20,604 nucleotides of DNA, taken from contig JBDHAB010000047.1 in assembly GCA_039588295.1 (NCBI GenBank), positions 1 through 20,604 of the forward strand, in the 5' to 3' direction. Below the pieces are notes generated by a model. That model worked only from the letters and a program-made list of their open reading frames with translations, was not told the DNA's origin and made no database searches. The DNA is from Gemmatimonadota bacterium (GTDB lineage Bacteria; Gemmatimonadota; Gemmatimonadetes; Gemmatimonadales; GWC2-71-9). Both the position numbers and the translations under genes were made by a program. Of this stretch, positions 10,857-20,604 are shown in pieces (within the stretch, counting starts at the first letter, position 1; each line of letters begins with the position of its first letter).

Positions 10857-13535
10857 ATGCCTGAGACGCAACTCGCGACGACATACGACCCGTCGGTGAT
10901 CGAGACGGCGGTGTATCGTCGGTGGAGCGAGACGGGCGGATTCGCGGCCGCCACCGACTCCGACCGCGACCCGTACGTCATCGTGATCCCGCCGCCGAAC
11001 GTCACATCCGTGCTGCACATGGGGCACGGCCTGAACAACACGATTCAGGACGTGCTGATCCGGTTCGAGCGAATGCGCGGTCGAGAGGCGCTGTGGCTCC
11101 CGGGAACCGACCACGCGGGCATTGCGACACAGAACGTGGTCGAGCGCGCCATCGCCCAGGACGGCCTGCGTCGCCAAGACCTCGGGCGCGAGGCCTTCGT
11201 CGAACGGGTGTGGCAGCACGTCCGGCAGACGGGCGGCACGATTATCGATCAACTCAAGGCGATCGGCTGCTCCTGTGACTGGACGCGAACCCGCTTCACG
11301 CTGGACGAGGCGTATTCGGCGGCCGTGCGGCGCGTCTTCGTTCAGCTCTTTCGCGACGGGCTCTTGTATCGCGGCCATCGCGTCATCCATTGGTGCCCGC
11401 GCTGCCTGACATCGCTCTCGGACGAGGAGGCAGAGTTCCGGGACCGTGACGACTACCTCTACTACATCCGCTACCGGGTGGCCGACCGCGATGAGCCACG
11501 ATGGGTCGTAGTGGCGACGACGCGTCCCGAGACGATGTTCGGCGACGTGTGTCTGGTTCATCACCCCGAAGACGAACGTTTTGCCGGACTCCGGGGCGCG
11601 ACCGTCGAGATTCCGCTGTCCGGCGTCCGCATCCCCATTGACGTGAGCACCGCCGTCGAGCGCGACTTCGGAACTGGGATGCTCAAGGTGACCCCGGCGC
11701 ACGACGCAAACGACTTCGACATCGCGGCGGCGCTGGGCGGCTACGAGGCGCCGGTCACCATGACCGCGGAAGGTCGGATGGCCGACGATCCCCGCGTCCC
11801 AGCCGAGTTGCGCGGCATGGATCGGGACGACACACGGCAACGCATTCTCGAGCTCCTGCGCGAGGAGGAACTCCTCGAGCGTGTCGAGCCCTACCAGCAT
11901 GCGGTGCGTCACTGCTACCGGTGCCACACGATTGTCGAGCCGCGGCTCTCGGATCAGTGGTTTGTGCGGATGCGCCCGCTCGCGCAACCCGCGCTCGAGG
12001 CCTATCGCGCCGGTCGCCTGACGTTCGTGCCCGAACGCTGGGGCAAGGTGTACGAGACCTGGCTCATCGAGATCCGTGACTGGAACATCTCGCGGCAGCT
12101 CTGGTGGGGGCACCGCATCCCCGCGTGGTACTGCGAGGCGGATGGATGCGAGCACATTACGGTGGCCGAGGAGGCGCCGGAGCGTTGTGAGGCGTGCGGC
12201 GGCACGGTGCGGCAAGACGAGGACGTGCTCGACACCTGGTTCTCGTCCTGGCTGTGGCCCTTTGCGACCATGGGCTGGCCCGATAGCGCGCCCGATCTCA
12301 CGCGGTTCTACCCCGGACACACCCTCGTCACGGCACCCGACATCATCTTTTTCTGGGTCGCCCGCATGGTGATGGCCGGCTACCACTTCATGGGCGAGCG
12401 GCCGTTCGAAACCGTGTACATGAACGGGGTCGTGCGCGACCCGCAGCACCGCGCGTTCTCGAAGTCTCTCGGCAACGGCATCGATCCCGTCGACGTCGTC
12501 GACCTATATGGCGCGGATGCACTCCGGTTCACGCTCGTCTCGGGCGCGGCGGCAGGGACCGACGTCATCATGGATCGCAACGACGTGGCAGCGACGTTCG
12601 CCGCGGGACGGAACTTCGCCAACAAACTGTGGAATGCGGGTCGCCTGATCCTGTCCACCGTCACCGAACCGCCGGCGGAAGTCGACCAGCTCGATCCCGC
12701 ACAGTTCGAGTTGGCGGATCGGTGGATGCTCTCCCGCACCCAACGCGCGGTGGCCGAGACGACTGCAGCGTTGGAGCGGTTCCGGCTCAACGACGCCGCG
12801 AGCCTGTTGTATCACTTCCTCTGGGACGAGATCGCGGACTGGTACCTCGAGCAGGTCAAGCCCCGGCTCTACGGATCGACCTCCGGTGGCGACGTGGCGC
12901 GCGGGATCCTCGCCCACGTCTTCGAGACCGCGCTCCGGCTGTTGCACCCGGTCATGCCATTCATCACTGAGGAGCTGTGGAGCCACCTCCCCCGAGGGCA
13001 GGGGCAACTCCTGGCGAGCACGGCGTGGCCGCAGCCACGCCCGTCCTTCGTGGATGGGGATGCGGAGGAACAGTTTGCCCTCGTTCAGGCCTTGGCGGGC
13101 GCGGTGCGCGGCATCAGGGCCGAGTATCGAGTACCACCGTCCACGTCCCTGCGAGCGGTCGTGGCACCGGCGACGGCGGCCGGGCTCCAAGCCTTCAACG
13201 CGGAGCAACGCACGATCGAGCGTCTTGCCAAACTGACCCAGTTGGCGATCGATGACTCCACCGAGGGTGTCGGCGGACACGCCGTGCTTCCCGATGGTTC
13301 CGCGGTGTTCGTTCCGCTCGGCGATGCGATCGACGTGCAGCGCGAATGCGAGCGGCTCGGGGGCGAACTCGAACGCCTCGACGGACAGCTCGCGCGGGTC
13401 ACGGCCAAGTTGGCCAACGAGCAGTTCGTGACGCGTGCCCCAGCCAACATCGTACAGCGCGAACGTGAGAAGGAGCGTTCATGGCGCGAGCAGTGCGAGA
13501 CCCTTTCCGCCAAGCTGCGCGCCTTGGGCTGCTGA
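10857..13535 (+). CDS. valS: Valine--tRNA ligase
   Basis: PPPNVTSVLHMGH (HIGH), GTDHAGIATQ, editing TTRPETMFGD and GTGMLKVTPAHD, DWNISRQLWWGHRIP, DVLDTWFSS, KMSKS-equivalent AFSKSLGN, NFANKLWNA, C-terminal coiled coil. Confidence 0.99.
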   Translation: MPETQLATTYDPSVIETAVYRRWSETGGFAAATDSDRDPYVIVIPPPNVTSVLHMGHGLNNTIQDVLIRFERMRGREALWLPGTDHAGIATQNVVERAIAQDGLRRQDLGREAFVERVWQHVRQTGGTIIDQLKAIGCSCDWTRTRFTLDEAYSAAVRRVFVQLFRDGLLYRGHRVIHWCPRCLTSLSDEEAEFRDRDDYLYYIRYRVADRDEPRWVVVATTRPETMFGDVCLVHHPEDERFAGLRGATVEIPLSGVRIPIDVSTAVERDFGTGMLKVTPAHDANDFDIAAALGGYEAPVTMTAEGRMADDPRVPAELRGMDRDDTRQRILELLREEELLERVEPYQHAVRHCYRCHTIVEPRLSDQWFVRMRPLAQPALEAYRAGRLTFVPERWGKVYETWLIEIRDWNISRQLWWGHRIPAWYCEADGCEHITVAEEAPERCEACGGTVRQDEDVLDTWFSSWLWPFATMGWPDSAPDLTRFYPGHTLVTAPDIIFFWVARMVMAGYHFMGERPFETVYMNGVVRDPQHRAFSKSLGNGIDPVDVVDLYGADALRFTLVSGAAAGTDVIMDRNDVAATFAAGRNFANKLWNAGRLILSTVTEPPAEVDQLDPAQFELADRWMLSRTQRAVAETTAALERFRLNDAASLLYHFLWDEIADWYLEQVKPRLYGSTSGGDVARGILAHVFETALRLLHPVMPFITEELWSHLPRGQGQLLASTAWPQPRPSFVDGDAEEQFALVQALAGAVRGIRAEYRVPPSTSLRAVVAPATAAGLQAFNAEQRTIERLAKLTQLAIDDSTEGVGGHAVLPDGSAVFVPLGDAIDVQRECERLGGELERLDGQLARVTAKLANEQFVTRAPANIVQREREKERSWREQCETLSAKLRALGC

Positions 13536-14686
13536 CGGCGGCGGCCGGGTGCGCCGTCGTCGAGCAGCCCCCCGGTGGCCCGCCAGACTTCGACGCGCCC
13601 ACCATCGTCAGTGTCACGCCCGACTCGGGCGCGATCGTCCCCGAGCTGGACAAGCCGCTCAGGATCCAATTCGACGAGGTGATCGCCGAGCAGGCCGGTG
13701 GTCGACTGGCGCAGCTCATTGAATTCTCACCGCGCGTCGAAGAGCTCGACGTCTCGTGGAAGCGCGACGCGCTCGAGGTTGAACCGAAGGGTGGGTGGAC
13801 CGCCGGCGTCGTTTACCGCGTGGTGCTCCTGCCGGGGATCGCGGACCTGCGCGACAACCGCCTCACCGAAGGACGCACCGTGGTGTTCTCGACGGGAGGT
13901 CCCATCCCCGAAACGAGCCTCACCGGCACGGTCGTGGATTGGCAAGACGGTCGCATTGGCCGCAACGCGCTCGTCGAGGCGGTGCTGTTGCCAGACTCGC
14001 TCGTGTACCTGGCTCAGAGCGATTCCGTCGGCCGGTTCGACCTGACGTCCGTCCCTCGAGGGGAGTATTGGGTCACGGCGACCGTCGACGGCAACAATAA
14101 CCGGCGACGTGAGCCGCGCGAGCCGTTCGATTCGGTGACCGTCGCCCTCGATTCCGCGGCGTCCCACGTGTTCTGGGCCTTCACCCGAGACACGCTGGGA
14201 CCGCAGTTACGTCAGCTGACCCAGGCCGACAGCGTCACGATCCGACTGGAGTTCACGCAGCGGCTCGAGCCTGGCGACCCTGATGCCGCCGGGGTGAGCG
14301 TCTGGGTGCTCCCCGACACCGTCGCCGTGCCGGTCCGAGCGGTCATCACTCAGGCGGTGTTTGATACGCTTCGCGCAGCCCGCCAAGCCGCGGCGCCCGA
14401 TACCAGCGGGGCTGAGACCCCTGACTCGGCGGTCGCGGCCGCGGTAGGTCGGGTTCCCACCGGTGTCGAGGCGCGCGCAGACTCCGCGGCCGCTCAGGAG
14501 ACCTCGGCCGTCGCCGCGCTCCTCGCACAGCGCCCCACCCTCGCATCCGCGTGGTTTGTCGAGCTTGCCGCACCGATGACGCCCGGTCTGCGCTACCTCG
14601 TCGGCGCCCGAGCGCGTAACCTGTCCGGTGCGACCGCCGAATCTCGATCGGTGCTCGTCGTGCCGGCTGCTCGCGACTCCACATGA
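13481..14686 (+). CDS. Lipoprotein with Ig-like (Big_5/SbsA-type) and further beta-sandwich domains
   Basis: Signal-II-like RQAARLGLLTAAAG/C (Cys24), then C-A-x4-PPGGPPD, I-x-FDE, Y-x-V-x-L-x-PGIADLRDN, G-x-F-x-L-x2-VP-x-G-x-Y and a D-x-N-x-N loop; ATGA overlap with selA. Confidence 0.8.
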   Translation: MARAVRDPFRQAARLGLLTAAAGCAVVEQPPGGPPDFDAPTIVSVTPDSGAIVPELDKPLRIQFDEVIAEQAGGRLAQLIEFSPRVEELDVSWKRDALEVEPKGGWTAGVVYRVVLLPGIADLRDNRLTEGRTVVFSTGGPIPETSLTGTVVDWQDGRIGRNALVEAVLLPDSLVYLAQSDSVGRFDLTSVPRGEYWVTATVDGNNNRRREPREPFDSVTVALDSAASHVFWAFTRDTLGPQLRQLTQADSVTIRLEFTQRLEPGDPDAAGVSVWVLPDTVAVPVRAVITQAVFDTLRAARQAAAPDTSGAETPDSAVAAAVGRVPTGVEARADSAAAQETSAVAALLAQRPTLASAWFVELAAPMTPGLRYLVGARARNLSGATAESRSVLVVPAARDST

Positions 14687-16029
14687 ACGACCGCCGCCGC
14701 GCGTTGCCATCGGTGAGCGCCCTGCTCGAAGAGGTCCGGACTGCGGGGGTCGTGCCGGACGCGTCGCGCGCGGACCTCGTCGATGCCATTCGGGCCGCGG
14801 TGGCCGACGCGCGGCAACGGGGGGGCGAGCCTCCGGCAGAAGGATGGCTCGCGGCCGTCACCAGCCGCATCCAGCACGCCACCCGGCCCTCGTTGACACG
14901 GGTCATCAACGCGACCGGGGTCGTGCTCCATACCAATCTGGGACGGGCGCCGCTCGCCACGCGGGCGAGTGCGGCGGTGGCGAACGCACTCTCCTACAGC
15001 ACGCTGGAGTTTCGCCTCGCCGAGGGAACTCGAGGATCCCGCCAGGATCACAGTCGTCGCCTGCTGCAGGACCTCACGGGTGCGGAGGCGGCGCTAGTGG
15101 TCAACAACGCGGCGTCCGCGCTACTCCTCGTGCTCAACGCCCTGGCCGAAGGTGGCGAGACGGTGGTCTCGCGTGGTGAGCTTGTCGAGATCGGGGGCGC
15201 GTTTCGGATCCCGGAGATCCTCACGAAGAGCGGCAGCGCTCTCATCGAGGTCGGCACCACCAACCGAACGCGGATCCGGGACTACGCGCTGGCCATCAGC
15301 CCGCGAACCCGACTGATCCTCAAAGTCCATCGGTCCAACTTTCAGCTCTCCGGCTTTGTCTCCGAGGCGGCGGTGGAGGAGCTGGTCGAACTCGGGCGCG
15401 AGCGTGCGATACCGGTTGTGCACGACGTGGGCAGCGGTCTGCTGCTCTCACTCGAGCACTACGGCCTTCGGGGGGAACCGTTGGTCCGTGACAGCGTCGC
15501 CGCGGGAGCCACCGTCGTGTTTTCGGGTGACAAGCTGTTGGGCGGACCGCAGGCGGGGATCGTGCTGGGACCGGAGTCCGTGCTGCAGCGGGTGACACCG
15601 AGCCCCCTCGCGCGCGCGTTACGTCCCGACAAGGTCACGCTCGCCGCCCTGGAGGCTACACTGGCCCTGTACCGTGACCCCGGACGGGCGCTCGCGGAAA
15701 TCCCCACGCTCGCGATGCTCACGGCGCCGCCCGACGCGCTGAGGCGTCGTGCACGGCGACTGGCGCGCCGCATCCAAGGAGCCACGACCCAACACGGATC
15801 GTCCGCGGTGGGGGGCGGAGCCTTCGCGGAGTGCCCGCTCCCCACCACGCTGGTCGCGCTGGATGTCGGCGACTGCGATGGCTTCCTCGCGGTGCTCCGA
15901 CGGCACGATCCACCCGTGATCGCGCGAACGGCCGAGGGACGCGTGCTGCTCGACGTCCGCACCATTCGAGACGACGAGTTCGGGCTGGTTGTGGACGCCG
16001 TACGAGCGGCCGGGTGGGACGGGACTTGA
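14683..16029 (+). CDS. selA: L-seryl-tRNA(Sec) selenium transferase
   Basis: RALPSV, RVINATGVVLHTNLGRAPL, VVNNAA, VSRGELVEIGGAFRIP, EVGTTNRT, KVHRSNF, PLP-lysine FSGDKLLGGPQAG, LDVRT. Confidence 0.97.
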   Translation: MNDRRRALPSVSALLEEVRTAGVVPDASRADLVDAIRAAVADARQRGGEPPAEGWLAAVTSRIQHATRPSLTRVINATGVVLHTNLGRAPLATRASAAVANALSYSTLEFRLAEGTRGSRQDHSRRLLQDLTGAEAALVVNNAASALLLVLNALAEGGETVVSRGELVEIGGAFRIPEILTKSGSALIEVGTTNRTRIRDYALAISPRTRLILKVHRSNFQLSGFVSEAAVEELVELGRERAIPVVHDVGSGLLLSLEHYGLRGEPLVRDSVAAGATVVFSGDKLLGGPQAGIVLGPESVLQRVTPSPLARALRPDKVTLAALEATLALYRDPGRALAEIPTLAMLTAPPDALRRRARRLARRIQGATTQHGSSAVGGGAFAECPLPTTLVALDVGDCDGFLAVLRRHDPPVIARTAEGRVLLDVRTIRDDEFGLVVDAVRAAGWDGT

Positions 16030-16063
16030 CGCCCGTTGCTTCCACCCGTCCGGCACGCGTCGG

Positions 16064-16072
16064 TGGTATACT
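16064..16072 (+). promoter_or_regulatory. Extended -10 promoter (TG-n-TATACT) upstream of purN-purH
   Basis: TGGTATACT in the selA-purN spacer. Confidence 0.55.
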
Positions 16073-16079
16073 CCTGTCA

Positions 16080-16163
16080 ATGGTCTCAGCGTGCCGAGTG
16101 GACGTGACCCTTCTGGAACGCCTCGTGGCACCTCTGTCGCCGTCGCACGAGCACCAGCGATGA
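16080..16163 (+). CDS. Putative leaderless 27-aa uORF (MVSACRVDVTLLERLVAPLSPSHEHQR)
   Basis: ATG lies 7 nt after the extended -10; TGA overlaps the purN start (ATGATG). Confidence 0.3.
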   Translation: MVSACRVDVTLLERLVAPLSPSHEHQR

Positions 16164-16807
16164 TGCGGGTTGGGGTCCTCGCCTCAGGAGGTGGCACCAA
16201 TCTCCAGGCGTTGTTGGACACCTGTCGGGACCCTGCCCCCGCGCGCATCGCGCTCGTCATCAGCAACAACCCGAGGGCAAAGGCGCTGGAGCGCGCGCAC
16301 CGCGCCGGAGTCGAGACCGCGGTGCTCAACGATCCGAGCGACGCGCGGGAGCTGGTGGAGCTCTTACGGTCCCACGAGACGGACCTGGTGGTTCTCGCCG
16401 GGTACCTGAAGCTCGTCCCCCCGGTGGTGGTGGAGGCGTATCGCGACCGGATGATCAATATTCATCCCGCGCTGCTGCCGTCGTTCGGCGGCAAGGGCAT
16501 GTACGGCCGGCGCGTGCACGAGGCGGTGCTGGCCTCGGGCGCCACGATTTCCGGCGCAACCGTGCATCTTGTCACGGCGGAATACGATCGCGGGCCAATC
16601 GTGGCCCAGTGGCCGGTGCCGATCGCACCGGAAGACTCGCCGGAATCCCTGGCGACTCGTGTGCTCGAGGTGGAGCATCAGCTCCTCCCGGCCGTCGTGC
16701 TTGCGGCGGCACGGGCCGGCCACGTGGTCCGCCTCGTGCCCGGCGCGCACGGATTCGAGGCCGACGCGGACCCGGCACCCGTCGCGCCACAGCTCTCGTC
16801 AGCGTGA
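16160..16807 (+). CDS. purN: Phosphoribosylglycinamide formyltransferase
   Basis: MMRVGVLASGGGTNLQALL, VISNN, LVVLAGYL, INIHPALLPSFGG, SGATVHLV-x3-YDRGPI. Start placed at ATG 16160 (or 16163), not 15989. Confidence 0.97.
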   Translation: MMRVGVLASGGGTNLQALLDTCRDPAPARIALVISNNPRAKALERAHRAGVETAVLNDPSDARELVELLRSHETDLVVLAGYLKLVPPVVVEAYRDRMINIHPALLPSFGGKGMYGRRVHEAVLASGATISGATVHLVTAEYDRGPIVAQWPVPIAPEDSPESLATRVLEVEHQLLPAVVLAAARAGHVVRLVPGAHGFEADADPAPVAPQLSSA

Positions 16808-16847
16808 ACCGCACCATGGATTGGTAACGGGAGGTAACAGAGGAAGA

Positions 16848-18377
16848 ATGCCCAGGGCGCTCATCTCGGTGTCGGACAAGCGTGGCGTTGCGCAGTTTGC
16901 CAGGGGGTTGGCGGACCTCGGATGGGAGATCGTCTCGACCGGAGGTACCGCGCATGTCATCACGCAGGCCGGAATTCCCGTCACCTCGATCGAGGAGGTA
17001 ACCGGCTTTCCGGAGATCATGGATGGGCGGGTGAAGACGCTGCACCCTGCCGTCCATTCGGCTCTGCTCGCTCGCCGCGATCAGGACGATCACATGCGCG
17101 AGCTCCGGTTACGCAACTTCACCCCCATCGATCTGGTGGCGGTCAACCTGTATCCGTTTCGCGAGACCATCGGCCGACCGAACGTCAAGTTCGACGACGC
17201 AATCGAGCAGATCGACATCGGTGGTCCCTCCATGCTCCGCTCGGCCGCCAAGAACCACATTGCGGTCGTTCCCGTCGTGGACCCGAACGACTATGAGAGC
17301 GTTCTGACCGCCCTCGCGGCCGGTGCCGTGCCAGCCAAGTTCCGGGCCGAGCTCGCAGCAAAGGTGTTCGCGCACACAGCCGCCTACGACGCCGCTATCG
17401 CCCAGTTCCTCGGGCGAGATGACGACACCCTCCCGGCGATGATGGGACTCGCACTGGAACGACTCCAAACGCTCCGCTACGGGGAGAACCCGTACCAGCG
17501 CGCCGCTCTCTACACGACCGGCGAGGGCCGCGGCTTCGACGAATTGGGCCAACTTCATGGCAAGGAGTTGTCGTTCAACAATCTCCTGGACGTCGAGGCC
17601 GCGACGGCCGCGGTCGTGCCCTGGCCGGACCGTCCGGTCTGCGCGGTCATCAAGCACACGACACCCTGCGGGATCGCCCTCGGCTCGAGCCCGGAGGAGG
17701 CGTACCGGCGCGCGCTCGCGACCGACCCCAAGTCGGCGTTCGGCTCGGTCGTAGCATTCAACACGGTCGTCGACGCCCCGACGGCAGAAGCGATGCACGA
17801 CCTGTTTGTCGAGGTGGTTGTCGCACCGCGGTTCCACGACGGCGCACTCGACGTCTTCCGCAAGAAGAAGAACCTCCGGGTCGTGGAGCTTCCGCTCACC
17901 GACAGTCGGCCGGCCCTGGATTTCAAGCGCGTGCGCGGCGGGTTTCTCGTGCAGGACCGCTTCAAGGTCTTGTCAGACGAGGGAGAGTGGGCGGTGGCCT
18001 CGAGCCGAGGGCCCACGCAGACGGAATGGCGCGATCTCCGGTTCGCGTGGTCGGCCGTTGCGTCGGTCAAGTCGAATGCGATCCTTCTCGCCCGCGATGA
18101 GGCGGCAATCGGAATCGGCGCGGGGCAAATGAGCCGCGTCGACGCCACGTTCCTTGCCGCGCACAAGGCACGGGACGCCGGACATGAGACGACCGGCGCC
18201 GTGCTGGCGTCCGACGCGTTCTTCCCGTTCGCCGACGGCATCGAACAGGCCGCGGCCGCAGGCATCACCGCCGTCATCCAGCCCGGCGGATCGATCCGGG
18301 ATGACGAGGTCACGGCGGCCGCCGACGCACACGACATCGCGATGGTGGTCACGGGAAAGCGCCAGTTCCGCCACTAG
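16848..18377 (+). CDS. purH: Bifunctional AICAR transformylase/IMP cyclohydrolase
   Basis: RALISVSDK, STGGTA, TGFPEIMDGRVKTLHP, VNLYPF, IDIGG, LRYGENP-x-Q, KHTTPCG, AGQMSRVD, ASDAFFPF, IQPGGSIRD, RQFRH. Start placed at ATG 16848 with an SD-like sequence upstream. Confidence 0.98.
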   Translation: MPRALISVSDKRGVAQFARGLADLGWEIVSTGGTAHVITQAGIPVTSIEEVTGFPEIMDGRVKTLHPAVHSALLARRDQDDHMRELRLRNFTPIDLVAVNLYPFRETIGRPNVKFDDAIEQIDIGGPSMLRSAAKNHIAVVPVVDPNDYESVLTALAAGAVPAKFRAELAAKVFAHTAAYDAAIAQFLGRDDDTLPAMMGLALERLQTLRYGENPYQRAALYTTGEGRGFDELGQLHGKELSFNNLLDVEAATAAVVPWPDRPVCAVIKHTTPCGIALGSSPEEAYRRALATDPKSAFGSVVAFNTVVDAPTAEAMHDLFVEVVVAPRFHDGALDVFRKKKNLRVVELPLTDSRPALDFKRVRGGFLVQDRFKVLSDEGEWAVASSRGPTQTEWRDLRFAWSAVASVKSNAILLARDEAAIGIGAGQMSRVDATFLAAHKARDAGHETTGAVLASDAFFPFADGIEQAAAAGITAVIQPGGSIRDDEVTAAADAHDIAMVVTGKRQFRH

Positions 18378-18432
18378 CGAGGTCCGCCACTGAACTGACC
18401 CGGGGACAGTCTTGGCCAGAGAAGGAGTACGG

Positions 18433-20604
18433 GTGACCGAATCGACCCACAGGGAACTCGCCGCGATGCCCCGACCGCCGTACGGGATGGCGGTGCTCGT
18501 CTTCTTCGCCGTGCTGGTGATCTACTTGTTGACCATCGCCCCGACGACCCAGTTCTGGGATACGTCGGAGTACATCGCGGCCGCGAAGGTCTTGGGAATC
18601 CCGCATCCACCGGGCAATCCCCTCTTCGTCCTGGTGGCGCACGTGTGGGGCTTGCTTCCGATCGTCGAACACTACGCCCTTCGCATCAACCTGTTTTCGG
18701 CCATCTCGAGCGCGTTGGCGTCCGGATTCCTGTTCCTCGTCGCCGAGCGCTTCCTGCGGGAACTCGTCCCGGAGCCGCGCTGGGCGCGAATCGGGGCGGC
18801 GGTCGGCGGCATCCTGGTGGGGGCGACCTCGTTCACGGTGTGGCATCAGTCGGTGGTGAACGAGAAGGTGTACACGCTGAGCCTACTCTCGATCGCGCTG
18901 GTCTTGTGGCTCGCGGTTCACTGGGGAGACGAGCCGGCCGGGCAGCGCCGCGATCACTGGCTGGTGCTCATTCTCTATCTCATCGCACTCAGCGCCACCA
19001 ATCACCTCATGGCACTGCTCGCGATCCCCGCCGTGGTCGTGTACGTCGAAGCGGCGGAAGCGGAGAAGCGGTTCTGGTTCCAATTGTTCGTCGCCGGCAC
19101 GCTGCTGGCGGCGGCCGGGGGAGCTGCGCTGCTCCTCTTCGAATGGATGGATGACCCGGGATCCTATTCCTACCTGTTTCTCGCCGTCGTGCTGCTCGGG
19201 GGAGCCGTGTGGTACGGCTTCACCTATCAGACCAGCACCGCGACCAGGATGTCGCTCGCGCTCGGTGTGGCTGGCTTGGTGATGGTGATAGCGGAACGAG
19301 CCTGGTCCGGTCAGACCGGGTGGCTCTACGGCGTCGCGATCGCGGCGGCCGCCGGATTCCTCACCCTGGCGTGGCGCGGCGGGCACCAACGCCTCGTGGC
19401 GGTCTCAATCGGTGTCGTCGCGGTCGGGGTCAGCGTATGGGTGGTCCTTCGGCTGCGCGCTCCCCTCTACCCACCGATCAACGAAGGTGAGCCCACGAAT
19501 TGGGAAGCGTTGAAGGCCGTCCTCAACCGGGAGCAGTATCAAAAGGGCCCCCTGCTGCCGCGCCAGGCGGATCTCGCGTGGCAGTACGCCAACTACCTGC
19601 AGTACTTCACGTGGCAGTTCGGACGGGACCTGGAACCTGCGGTGCGCAACTTCTTGGCGCTCGTGTTCGGCGGCCTCGGACTCGTCGGGGCGGTACGACA
19701 GTGGCAGCGCGATCGTCGTGGGGCGGTCGCCATGACCGCACTCATGGTCACCGTCATCGTACTGCTCGTATTCTACCTGGACTTCAAGTACGGGTTCTCG
19801 ATTCGACGCGGCGAGAACCTGCTCAGGGAAGTGCGTGAACGAGACTACTTCTTCATCGCCTCGTTCCAGCTGTGGGGAATCTGGGTGGCCCTGGGATTCG
19901 GCGCCCTCCTCGAGGGAGTCGGCGCGGCGTTCCGGGCTCGGTTCGACGATCACAGCCGGTGGCTGGTCGGGGCGCCGCTCCTGCTGCTGGCCCTCGTGCC
20001 GCTCTGGGGTAACAGCCGCTCCGCTTCGCGCGCCGGCGAGACGCTCCCCCGAGATTTCGCGTGGGACCTCCTGCAGTCGGTCGAGCCCTATGCGATTCTC
20101 GTGACTGCGGGGGACAACGATACGTTCCCGCTGTGGTACATGCAGGAGGTCGAGGGTATTCGCCGAGATGTCTTGCTGGCGAACACGTCGCTGATGAACA
20201 CCGACTGGCATTCGCGGCAGCTCAAACGGCGGGAAGTCATGCCGTTCGACACCGCGAACGCCATTCCATTGTACCAAGGGAGATCCTGGACACCGCCCAC
20301 CGGCTCGGCGGTGCGGTTCTCCTATGACGAGATCGATGCCCTCCCACCCGTCCAGGCCGTGCGTGAACGGAGTGTCTTTCGAGCCGGGACTCTGCGAGCC
20401 GTGCTCGAACCGCAAGTGCTGGAACGCGCCGACCTCATGACCCTGCACTTGATCCAGGAAAACATTGGGAAGCGGCCGATCTACTTCTCCCGCACCACCG
20501 GGGCGTACCCCGACGCCCTTGGCCTCACACCGTACCTCGTCGGGCACGGTCTGGCGCGCAAGCTTCTGACGGAGCCGGTTCAGCCGGACGACAGCATTGT
20601 TCCC
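18433..20604 (+). CDS. DUF2723 / TMEM260-like polytopic membrane glycosyltransferase (GT-C type); runs off the right edge
   Basis: Not in the ORF track. SD AAGGAG then GTG at 18433. Hand translation gives YLLTIAPTTQFWDTSEYIAAAKVLGIPHPPGNPLF, VWHQSVVNEKVY, SATNHL, PPINEGEP, LNREQY, EVRERDYFF, GDNDTFPLWYMQEVEGIRRDV and RPIYFS, all in one frame with many hydrophobic helices. Confidence 0.9.
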   Translation, partial: MTESTHRELAAMPRPPYGMAVLVFFAVLVIYLLTIAPTTQFWDTSEYIAAAKVLGIPHPPGNPLFVLVAHVWGLLPIVEHYALRINLFSAISSALASGFLFLVAERFLRELVPEPRWARIGAAVGGILVGATSFTVWHQSVVNEKVYTLSLLSIALVLWLAVHWGDEPAGQRRDHWLVLILYLIALSATNHLMALLAIPAVVVYVEAAEAEKRFWFQLFVAGTLLAAAGGAALLLFEWMDDPGSYSYLFLAVVLLGGAVWYGFTYQTSTATRMSLALGVAGLVMVIAERAWSGQTGWLYGVAIAAAAGFLTLAWRGGHQRLVAVSIGVVAVGVSVWVVLRLRAPLYPPINEGEPTNWEALKAVLNREQYQKGPLLPRQADLAWQYANYLQYFTWQFGRDLEPAVRNFLALVFGGLGLVGAVRQWQRDRRGAVAMTALMVTVIVLLVFYLDFKYGFSIRRGENLLREVRERDYFFIASFQLWGIWVALGFGALLEGVGAAFRARFDDHSRWLVGAPLLLLALVPLWGNSRSASRAGETLPRDFAWDLLQSVEPYAILVTAGDNDTFPLWYMQEVEGIRRDVLLANTSLMNTDWHSRQLKRREVMPFDTANAIPLYQGRSWTPPTGSAVRFSYDEIDALPPVQAVRERSVFRAGTLRAVLEPQVLERADLMTLHLIQENIGKRPIYFSRTTGAYPDALGLTPYLVGHGLARKLLTEPVQPDDSIVP

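Follow-up and report, generated by a model that had tools for sequence, protein, structure and literature searches.

The window, a stretch of 20,604 bases, is the beginning of a 34,872-base contig (C47) from a Gemmatimonadota genome of the order Gemmatimonadales (G000; 4.5 Mb, 64% GC), the group to which the named homologs of its DUF2723 protein belong and in which 3958 genes were called with our own hexamer model. It holds most of a gene for a putative glycosyltransferase of the C-type fold (GT-C), which belongs to the PF11028/DUF2723 family and resembles human TMEM260. The probable role of this enzyme in protein O-glycosylation is the subject of the present analysis. The gene encodes 819 amino acids and runs on the + strand from 18433 to the window end at 20604, and on to contig position 20901. 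At the window end it crosses a two-base NN scaffold gap (C47:20605-20606); the protein free of the gap, P0001, has 819 aa. The gap is flanked by a 7-base duplication and the reading frame is preserved, P0001 being without three extra residues.

The gene is the last of a co-oriented run on the + strand. It is preceded by valS (10857-13535), a lipoprotein gene (13481-14686), selA (14683-16029; PF03841, E 1e-126), purN (16160-16807; PF00551) and purH (16848-18377; PF01808 and PF02142), and the successive gaps are -55, -4, 130, 40 and 55 bp. From its called start the lipoprotein gene shares 55 bases with the end of valS (13481-13535), and its stop overlaps the start of selA by 4. The gene order of the window itself is ordinary. 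An earlier reading of the sequence alone (the sequence-only reading) had described the same order, with selA, purN and purH between a sequon-rich lipoprotein and the DUF2723 gene, and had taken it for a candidate local O-mannosylation locus of enzyme and substrate, while cautioning that the linkage might be incidental. That caution was justified. The lipoprotein and PF11028 genes were co-oriented within about 8 kb in at least 28 Gemmatimonadales genomes, judged by the listed coordinates. Outside the order, in 10/10 genomes from other orders and classes, four of them assembled as a single contig, the two genes were unlinked. Among 80 loci from across the Fibrobacterota-Chlorobiota-Bacteroidota (FCB) superphylum that carry the PF11028 catalytic motif, tblastn detected no homolog of the lipoprotein, and purH was present in one of the 80, a Gemmatimonadaceae locus. 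The 50 most sequon-rich proteins of the source genome are spread over 27 contigs. A local operon acting as a dedicated enzyme-substrate system was rejected, as the synteny through selA, purN and purH is limited to the order; the proximity of the two genes is an incidental, conserved housekeeping gene order.

The lipoprotein is of the FCB type, with a lipidation cysteine at position 24 (Cys24), a Big_5 Ig-like domain (residues 38-138; 13592-13894, +), a CarboxypepD_reg domain (residues 146-210) and a third region. It carries 11 sequons of the form D-[ST]-[AILVMT] compared to 1.73 in shuffled sequences, and 11 was not reached in any of 20000 shuffles (0/20000). Only six of the 3549 sorted proteins rank higher in the source genome (rank 7). 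All 11 sites are located in residues 172-401 (13994-14683, +). The 27 orthologs analyzed contain 8-16 sequons each; their Big_5 parts together hold 7 against 8.5 expected, and the two later regions hold 89 against 11 and 206 against 22. A match to the lipoprotein was observed in 119/121 genomes of the phylum, and its atlas neighbours belong to Chlorobiota, Fibrobacterota, Rhodothermota, Cloacimonadota and Bacteroidota. Judged from its sequon content the lipoprotein is a likely O-glycoprotein substrate, one among many in this genome. The sequence-only reading had described a sequon-rich Ig-fold substrate; the Ig domain itself holds 0/11 of the sites. The Big_5 domain starts with the pattern P-x6-P-x2-G, as in the A strand of the plexin IPT domain (P40 in 26/27, P47 in 27/27 and G50 in 22/27 orthologs). 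In 21/27 orthologs Gln or Arg occupies the column of the plexin acceptor Thr, and the full IPT-type pattern P-x6-P-x2-G-P-x-x-G-G-x-x-T/S was without a match among the called proteins of the source genome. The Big_5 domain was therefore rejected as a TMEM260-like client.

The DUF2723 enzyme and its distribution

The DUF2723 protein matched PF11028 with an E-value of 7e-47 (159.9 bits, cut-off 24.2). Human TMEM260 was its sole sequence relative in the PDB (9rql, E 2e-17), and a profile of FCB PF11028 proteins matched TMEM260 at E 1e-35, with tetratricopeptide repeats (TPRs) at the C-terminal end. Passages of a preprint on TMEM260 (10.64898/2026.03.17.711096) name D441 as the catalytic base and D52, H67, R264, Y267 and R355 as donor contacts. 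In the HMMER and profile alignments D43, H58, R470 and D561 of the bacterial protein align with D52, H67, R355 and D441. The sequence-only reading had pointed to the motifs FWDTSEY and HPPG; both are present and contain the donor-binding counterparts D43 and H58 (18559-18606, +; alignment to 9rql). R470 is part of R468-E-R470 (19834-19842, +) and D561 of G-D561-N-D-T-F-P-L-W (20110-20136, +). R366-x-x-Y369 (19528-19539, +) lies in a stretch not aligned by HMMER and, from its spacing and position, would be the counterpart of the donor-loading loop residues R264 and Y267. D43, H58, R366, Y369, R470 and D561 were invariant in 74/74 aligned phmmer-selected homologs (74 of 120 listed). This set was chosen independently of the motif and is the fair test, whereas the invariance of D561 in another set of 79 sequences is circular, the set having been picked by that motif.

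The AlphaFold model of the protein had a mean confidence (pLDDT) of 87.3 and matched the GT-C enzymes AglB, PglB, STT3, ArnT, Pmt and ALG12 (Foldseek E 4e-6; Z 21.8, root-mean-square deviation 4.6, 402 residues aligned). In fold similarity ALG12 and ArnT (Z 21.8 and 21.1) were level with the oligosaccharyltransferases. TMEM260 (9rql) was absent from the matches listed in both fold searches with the model. The protein has the TMEM260-type layout of a GT-C part, a Rossmann-like part and a helical/TPR part, with intact donor-binding and catalytic residues, and the claim of a TMEM260-like GT-C enzyme with an intact active site was thereby borne out. Because the active-site residues of TMEM260 are invariant and the model matches GT-C enzymes, the protein is likely an active transferase dependent on a lipid-phosphate-linked sugar.

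The soluble tail of the protein contains three sequons compared to 0.6 expected: DTA at residue 606 (20248-20256, +), DSI at residue 720 (20590-20598, +) and DST beyond the window. The first two, already noted in the sequence-only reading, were kept in 46/74 and 36/74 homologs. In P. gingivalis the DUF2723 protein PGN_0192 and the YfhO/PMT-labelled PGN_1968 are each glycosylated at one site, according to passages of PMC8729774, and a P. intermedia DUF2723 protein is glycosylated at a DTL site. The self-sequons mark the DUF2723 protein as a substrate and not as the enzyme; as evidence for an enzymatic role they were rejected, since PGN_1968 is glycosylated too.

PF11028 was found in 300/301 Gemmatimonadota genomes (299/300 without G153), 59/61 Fibrobacterota, 60/61 Marinisomatota and 41/41 Cloacimonadota, and its long form in 71/71 genomes of a phylum inferred to be Bacteroidota; the profiling covered the long type within FCB phyla. 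It remained single-copy even in Marinisomatota genomes of 0.9-1.1 Mb. One of 14 control genomes contained it, that of B. thetaiotaomicron. A scan for the catalytic motif gave at least 121 stretches, and among 80 listed, 76 carried FCB titles and one was a Prevotella-like contig (L089). A tree of 44 motif-locus proteins (FastTree) followed the FCB lineages and required 10 changes where at least 9 are needed. PF11028 is near-universal and vertically inherited in the FCB phyla sampled. The apparent negative G424 was rejected as such, its C-terminal part lying at a contig end broken by the assembly; G116, G473 and the YfhO-negative G429 were not used, since their completeness was not shown. The record of L089 is titled Sphaerochaetaceae; its proteins look Prevotella-like, it is probably mislabelled, and its phylum was read as Bacteroidota. 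As a representative of a phylum outside FCB it was rejected on these grounds and on the 71/71 genomes of its phylum with the long form.

A second PF11028 paralog of 842 aa with the same motifs is encoded in the source genome at C19:73591-76119. In the tree it derives from a duplication inside Gemmatimonadota, and most genomes of the class have at least two copies. Its neighbours are genes that, judged from their sequences, are presumably cdaA-like on one side and yggS-, divIVA- and ileS-like on the other. In many Bacteroidota loci (L034-L113) the gene next after PF11028 encodes about 185-215 aa and is presumably polysaccharide-deacetylase-like. The catalytic "palm" motif of PF11028 (profile positions 525-576, E 6e-20) also stands alone in a 1718-aa exported protein of the source genome with 21 sites (C54:17221-22377, -), where it follows a TPR-like stretch and is not accompanied by a transmembrane GT-C part. 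Palm-only reading frames of about 420-460 aa were present in several Cloacimonadota. The stand-alone palm is possibly a reused glycopeptide-binding module.

Exported sequons and the YfhO-like candidate

Proteins of at least 100 aa from the source genome (3549) were sorted by hydropathy rules rather than by a trained predictor into 562 exported, 1041 cytoplasmic, 436 multi-pass and 1510 unassigned proteins, the last two classes standing outside the contrast. D-S-[ILVA] was observed 444 times against 238 expected in exported proteins (1.86), and 339 times against 335 in cytoplasmic proteins (1.01). The control E-S-[ILVA] gave 0.91. The ratio was 1.93 with one protein per family, and DSL and DSV ranked first and second of 2539 tripeptides for enrichment in exported proteins. 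D-T-[ILVA] was not enriched in the same proteins (262/253, observed/expected, as below). At least one sequon was present in 348/562 exported proteins, and 32 proteins, on 19 contigs, had five or more. In 30 membrane Ser/Thr kinases the sequons were at expectation before the transmembrane helix (10/10.0) and in excess after it (82/18.6), although the paralogs are not independent; 17 kinases without the helix had 4/7.1. The extracytoplasmic halves of these 30 kinases were the most sequon-enriched class seen (4.4-fold). The sequon enrichment of the secretome expected by the sequence-only reading is thus real, and the D-S/T-x excess is confined to extracytoplasmic proteins, export-specific and genome-wide.

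With the same method exported proteins gave 50/28 and 28/14 in two Bacteroidia loci, and 34/9 (G423) and 33/20 (G419) in Fibrobacterota. The negative controls were all Proteobacteria and gave 26/26 for E. coli, 6/9 for a Cupriavidus chromid and 5/8 for pSymB (pooled 37/43, 0.86); for two of them PF11028 was searched in the replicon and not in the chromosome. The contrast is not entirely clean, as proteins classed as cytoplasmic exceeded expectation too in low-GC Bacteroidia (69/39) and in G423 (39/16), presumably due to mis-called starts. Because the sequon signal is genome-wide in exported proteins, O-glycosylation of the Bacteroidota type likely extends to Gemmatimonadota and Fibrobacterota, as far as sequence statistics can tell.

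A search for a polyprenol-phosphate mannose synthase, suggested in the sequence-only reading, revealed a dolichol-phosphate-mannose-synthase-like gene in the source genome, the best PDB match of its product being dolichol monophosphate mannose synthase (E 9.5e-30). It lies in an operon of GT4, flippase-like, YfhO-like (795 aa) and synthase genes (C18:47665-52870) beside a kds/lpt/rpoN block. The YfhO-like gene directly precedes the synthase in 21/23 Gemmatimonadales loci, most with a flippase-like gene ahead of the YfhO-like gene. YfhO-like proteins were found in 61/61, 71/71 and 60/61 genomes of the three phyla tested. PF09586 scored them weakly, the one from the source genome falling below the cut-off. 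Alignment of the PF11028 and YfhO-like profiles (hhalign) gave a probability of 1.9%, and the two would appear to be unrelated, co-distributed GT-C enzymes. In Fibrobacterota G383 a YfhO-like gene follows immediately after PF11028, and the coordinates show this order in several further Fibrobacterota. A close synthase match was found in 3/80 motif loci only.

One Fibrobacterota genome bears directly on the function of PF11028. G421, a reduced and AT-rich genome, is a single contig of 1,596,744 bases (32% GC). No PF11028 was detected in it by the family search or by the FCB profile at E-values up to 1. A search with hmmsearch --max, run on six-frame translations that covered the contig except for 1 kb, was negative as well, and 25/25 of its relatives possess the gene. 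The chromosome is apparently complete, as GC skew divides it into two replichores of similar length and its tRNAs cover all 20 amino acids. Nevertheless, D-[ST]-[ILVA] occurs 203 times in its 136 exported proteins, compared to an expectation of 90.5 (2.2-fold), with controls of 1.01 for E (95 against 93.8), 0.85 for N and 0.81 for the reversed motif. The excess was maintained after removal of paralogs (171 against 80.8), and was 1.49 in the 33 proteins with homologs in the source genome and 2.59 in the other 103. G421 keeps one YfhO-like protein (E 5e-46), a synthase 51% identical to that of the source genome, the GT2 neighbour of the synthase and the LPG_synthase_TM protein. In a scan of 36 of its 58 multi-pass candidates YfhO was the only GT-C family match; one GT2 fusion was without a Pfam match over its N-terminal portion, which could be another GT-C. 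A blastp match to the lipoprotein was not obtained in G421. G421 has an expansion of Big_2 Ig-repeat lipoproteins, and genes of this kind now occupy the places behind nusB and ahead of the GT2/synthase pair that hold PF11028 in its relatives.

Proposed role and relation to known systems

In excerpts of PMC8729774 a model is described in which a core disaccharide is placed first and an outer glycan is ligated later, so that more than one periplasmic transfer is needed. Two unrelated, co-inherited GT-C enzymes, adjacent in some Fibrobacterota, fit such a two-step model. The YfhO-like protein is more likely than PF11028 to attach the first sugar, because G421 keeps the sequon excess, the YfhO-like protein and the donor synthase without PF11028. 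PF11028 is placed at a later step because no genome that maintains the sequons should be able to do without the enzyme of the first step, yet G421 does without PF11028, and because the YfhO-like gene stays with the donor synthase. Our preferred reading, held tentatively and somewhat short of probable, is that PF11028 acts, likely in the periplasm, on the exported glycoproteins of an FCB-wide D-S/T-hydrophobic O-glycosylation, at a step after the first sugar has been added by the YfhO-like protein. The synthase would make a polyprenol-phosphate-hexose and the LPG_synthase_TM protein would flip it. The YfhO-like protein would then put the linking hexose on the Ser/Thr of D-S/T-(L/V/I/A), and PF11028 might add a branching deoxyhexose or ligate the outer glycan.

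Published transposon screens, each seen through excerpts, are in part consistent with this placement. PGN_0192 and PGN_1968 are both on one essential gene list of P. gingivalis, PGN_1968 being shared with B. thetaiotaomicron (BT2796) (PMC3547785). In a second library PGN_1968 was inherently essential and PGN_0192 was not; PGN_0192 was depleted in epithelial cells and in the abscess (log2 -4.9 and -3.7) (PMC5581868).

Several observations weigh against a later-step role for PF11028. TMEM260, the closest characterised relative, initiates on Thr, and the base and peptide-binding layout kept in the bacterial protein would by analogy fit initiation. PGN_0192 was called essential in one of the two screens (PMC3547785, in part). 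In Fibrobacterales L050 the GT2/synthase pair comes directly after PF11028, and in L100 a synthase lies at a distance of three genes from it. The GT-C fold of the YfhO-like protein is suggested by weak PF09586/PF13231 matches and by an HHpred statement in passages of a preprint (10.64898/2026.07.27.740950). G421 is one genome, in which the loss could be recent and the sequons relics.

The sequence-only reading had DUF2723 as the initiator of D-(S/T)-x glycosylation. In this form PF11028 would be the initiating O-mannosyltransferase, alone or overlapping with the YfhO-like protein, which would add a later sugar or the outer glycan; we regard it as possible, though clearly on the unlikely side. 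PF11028 shares sequence homology and architecture with a proven O-mannosyltransferase and retains all five of the essential residues that could be aligned or inferred, its tree follows the FCB lineages, and it is single-copy in the small Marinisomatota genomes. It is absent from 13/14 control genomes and from the chromosome of E. coli, where the exported proteins sampled are without sequon excess, and the reducing-end sugar in E. meningoseptica is mannose. However, G421 without PF11028 has a 2.1-2.2-fold excess that survives paralog removal, in Gemmatimonadales the genes for the donor synthase and the flippase-like protein accompany the YfhO-like gene and not PF11028, and in one library PGN_0192 tolerated transposon insertions in vitro (PMC5581868, in excerpt). 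The reducing sugar in T. forsythia is Gal. The contrast of FCB with Proteobacteria is a single phylogenetic split, and it fits the YfhO-like protein, which matches the distribution of the sequons at least as well, equally. A lack of correlation between DUF2723 and sequon enrichment had been named beforehand as a result that would speak against initiation, and this was found in part: PF11028 is not in every genome keeping the excess, G421 being the one such genome.

It is improbable that PF11028 is a client-specific O-mannosyltransferase for a few Ig/IPT-like proteins, separate from the general D-S/T-x pathway. TMEM260 is itself client-specific, as stated in the preprint passages, the Big_5 domain begins like the plexin A strand, and G421 is without both PF11028 and a blastp match to the lipoprotein. 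This is countered by Gln/Arg in the acceptor column (21/27), by the absence of the IPT-type G-P-x-x-G-G sequon pattern among the called proteins, by the alignment of the TMEM260 acceptor contact E466 to Ser and by the loss of the lipoprotein linkage outside Gemmatimonadales. A role in glycosylating lipid or polysaccharide (lipid A, lipopolysaccharide core or a glycolipid) like ArnT/ALG-type GT-Cs, and not protein, would suit the fold similarity to ALG12 and ArnT and a sequon excess in G421 that needs no PF11028, but with TMEM260 as the sole PDB sequence relative and the periplasmic Rossmann-like and TPR lobe, polypeptide-binding in TMEM260, retained, it is very unlikely.

We consider the wider picture to be, on balance, probable: D-S/T-hydrophobic O-glycosylation would be ancestral in the FCB superphylum and periplasmic, with two unrelated core GT-C enzymes, and the PF11028 clade, a bacterial counterpart of an enzyme of human congenital disease, would be one long-missing transferase with hundreds of exported proteins as its substrates. 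The Bacteroidota enzyme that links the glycan to Ser/Thr has, according to passages of a preprint (10.64898/2026.07.27.740950), been without identification for more than 15 years. In the same passages YfhO is predicted as the Bacteroidota oligosaccharyltransferase, the enzyme is called still unidentified, and DUF2723 and TMEM260 are unmentioned; their claim that P. gingivalis is without YfhO conflicts with the label of PGN_1968. The literature searched, which largely excluded subscription papers, gave no assigned function for bacterial TMEM260 homologs. By title and abstract, the papers listed contained no work extending D-S/T-x O-glycosylation to Gemmatimonadota, and none on bacteria among those on GT117. 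The results remove the claim of a local system and sharpen the long-open transferase question to two FCB-core GT-C candidates, with D561 as a named residue for mutation and G421 as a natural gene-loss genome that ranks the candidates, and the sequence signature of the Bacteroidota pathway is extended to Gemmatimonadota and Fibrobacterota.

Among known systems, TMEM260 (CAZy GT117, PF11028; PDB 9rql, 9rqm and 9rqn) shares with the bacterial enzyme the GT-C, Rossmann-like and TPR layout and four aligned essential residues, with R264/Y267 inferred at R366/Y369. According to the preprint passages (10.64898/2026.03.17.711096) TMEM260 puts mannose directly on a peptide Thr, glycan extension is not known for it, and its Rossmann-like and TPR lobe binds the polypeptide. 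The bacterial protein differs in its place in the inner membrane, in some four additional helices at residues 214-315, in the invariant N-D-T-F-P after the base compared to L-P-G-N-S in TMEM260, in its short helical C-terminus and in having no IPT-sequon clients detected among the proteins of the source genome. YfhO-type systems (CsbB-GtcA-YfhO for lipoteichoic acid, PgfS/PgfM1 of S. mutans and the Bacteroidota YfhO) resemble the synthase/flippase-like/YfhO-like operon on C18, and a role of YfhO in lipoteichoic acid glycosylation and the Pgf system are noted in parts of a review (PMC11983588); the window enzyme differs in that PF11028 is without detectable profile similarity to the YfhO-like protein. 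Compared to the general O-glycosylation of Bacteroidota, the Gemmatimonadota signal is one of sequence statistics and D-T sites are hardly enriched in the source genome (1.03). The likeness lies in the motif D-(S/T)-(A/I/L/M/T/V) on extracytoplasmic proteins, in the glycosylation of the DUF2723 orthologs of P. gingivalis and P. intermedia, and in the preference of P. intermedia for D-S-(L/I/V), reported in passages of PMC10897501, which corresponds to the top tripeptides of the source genome.

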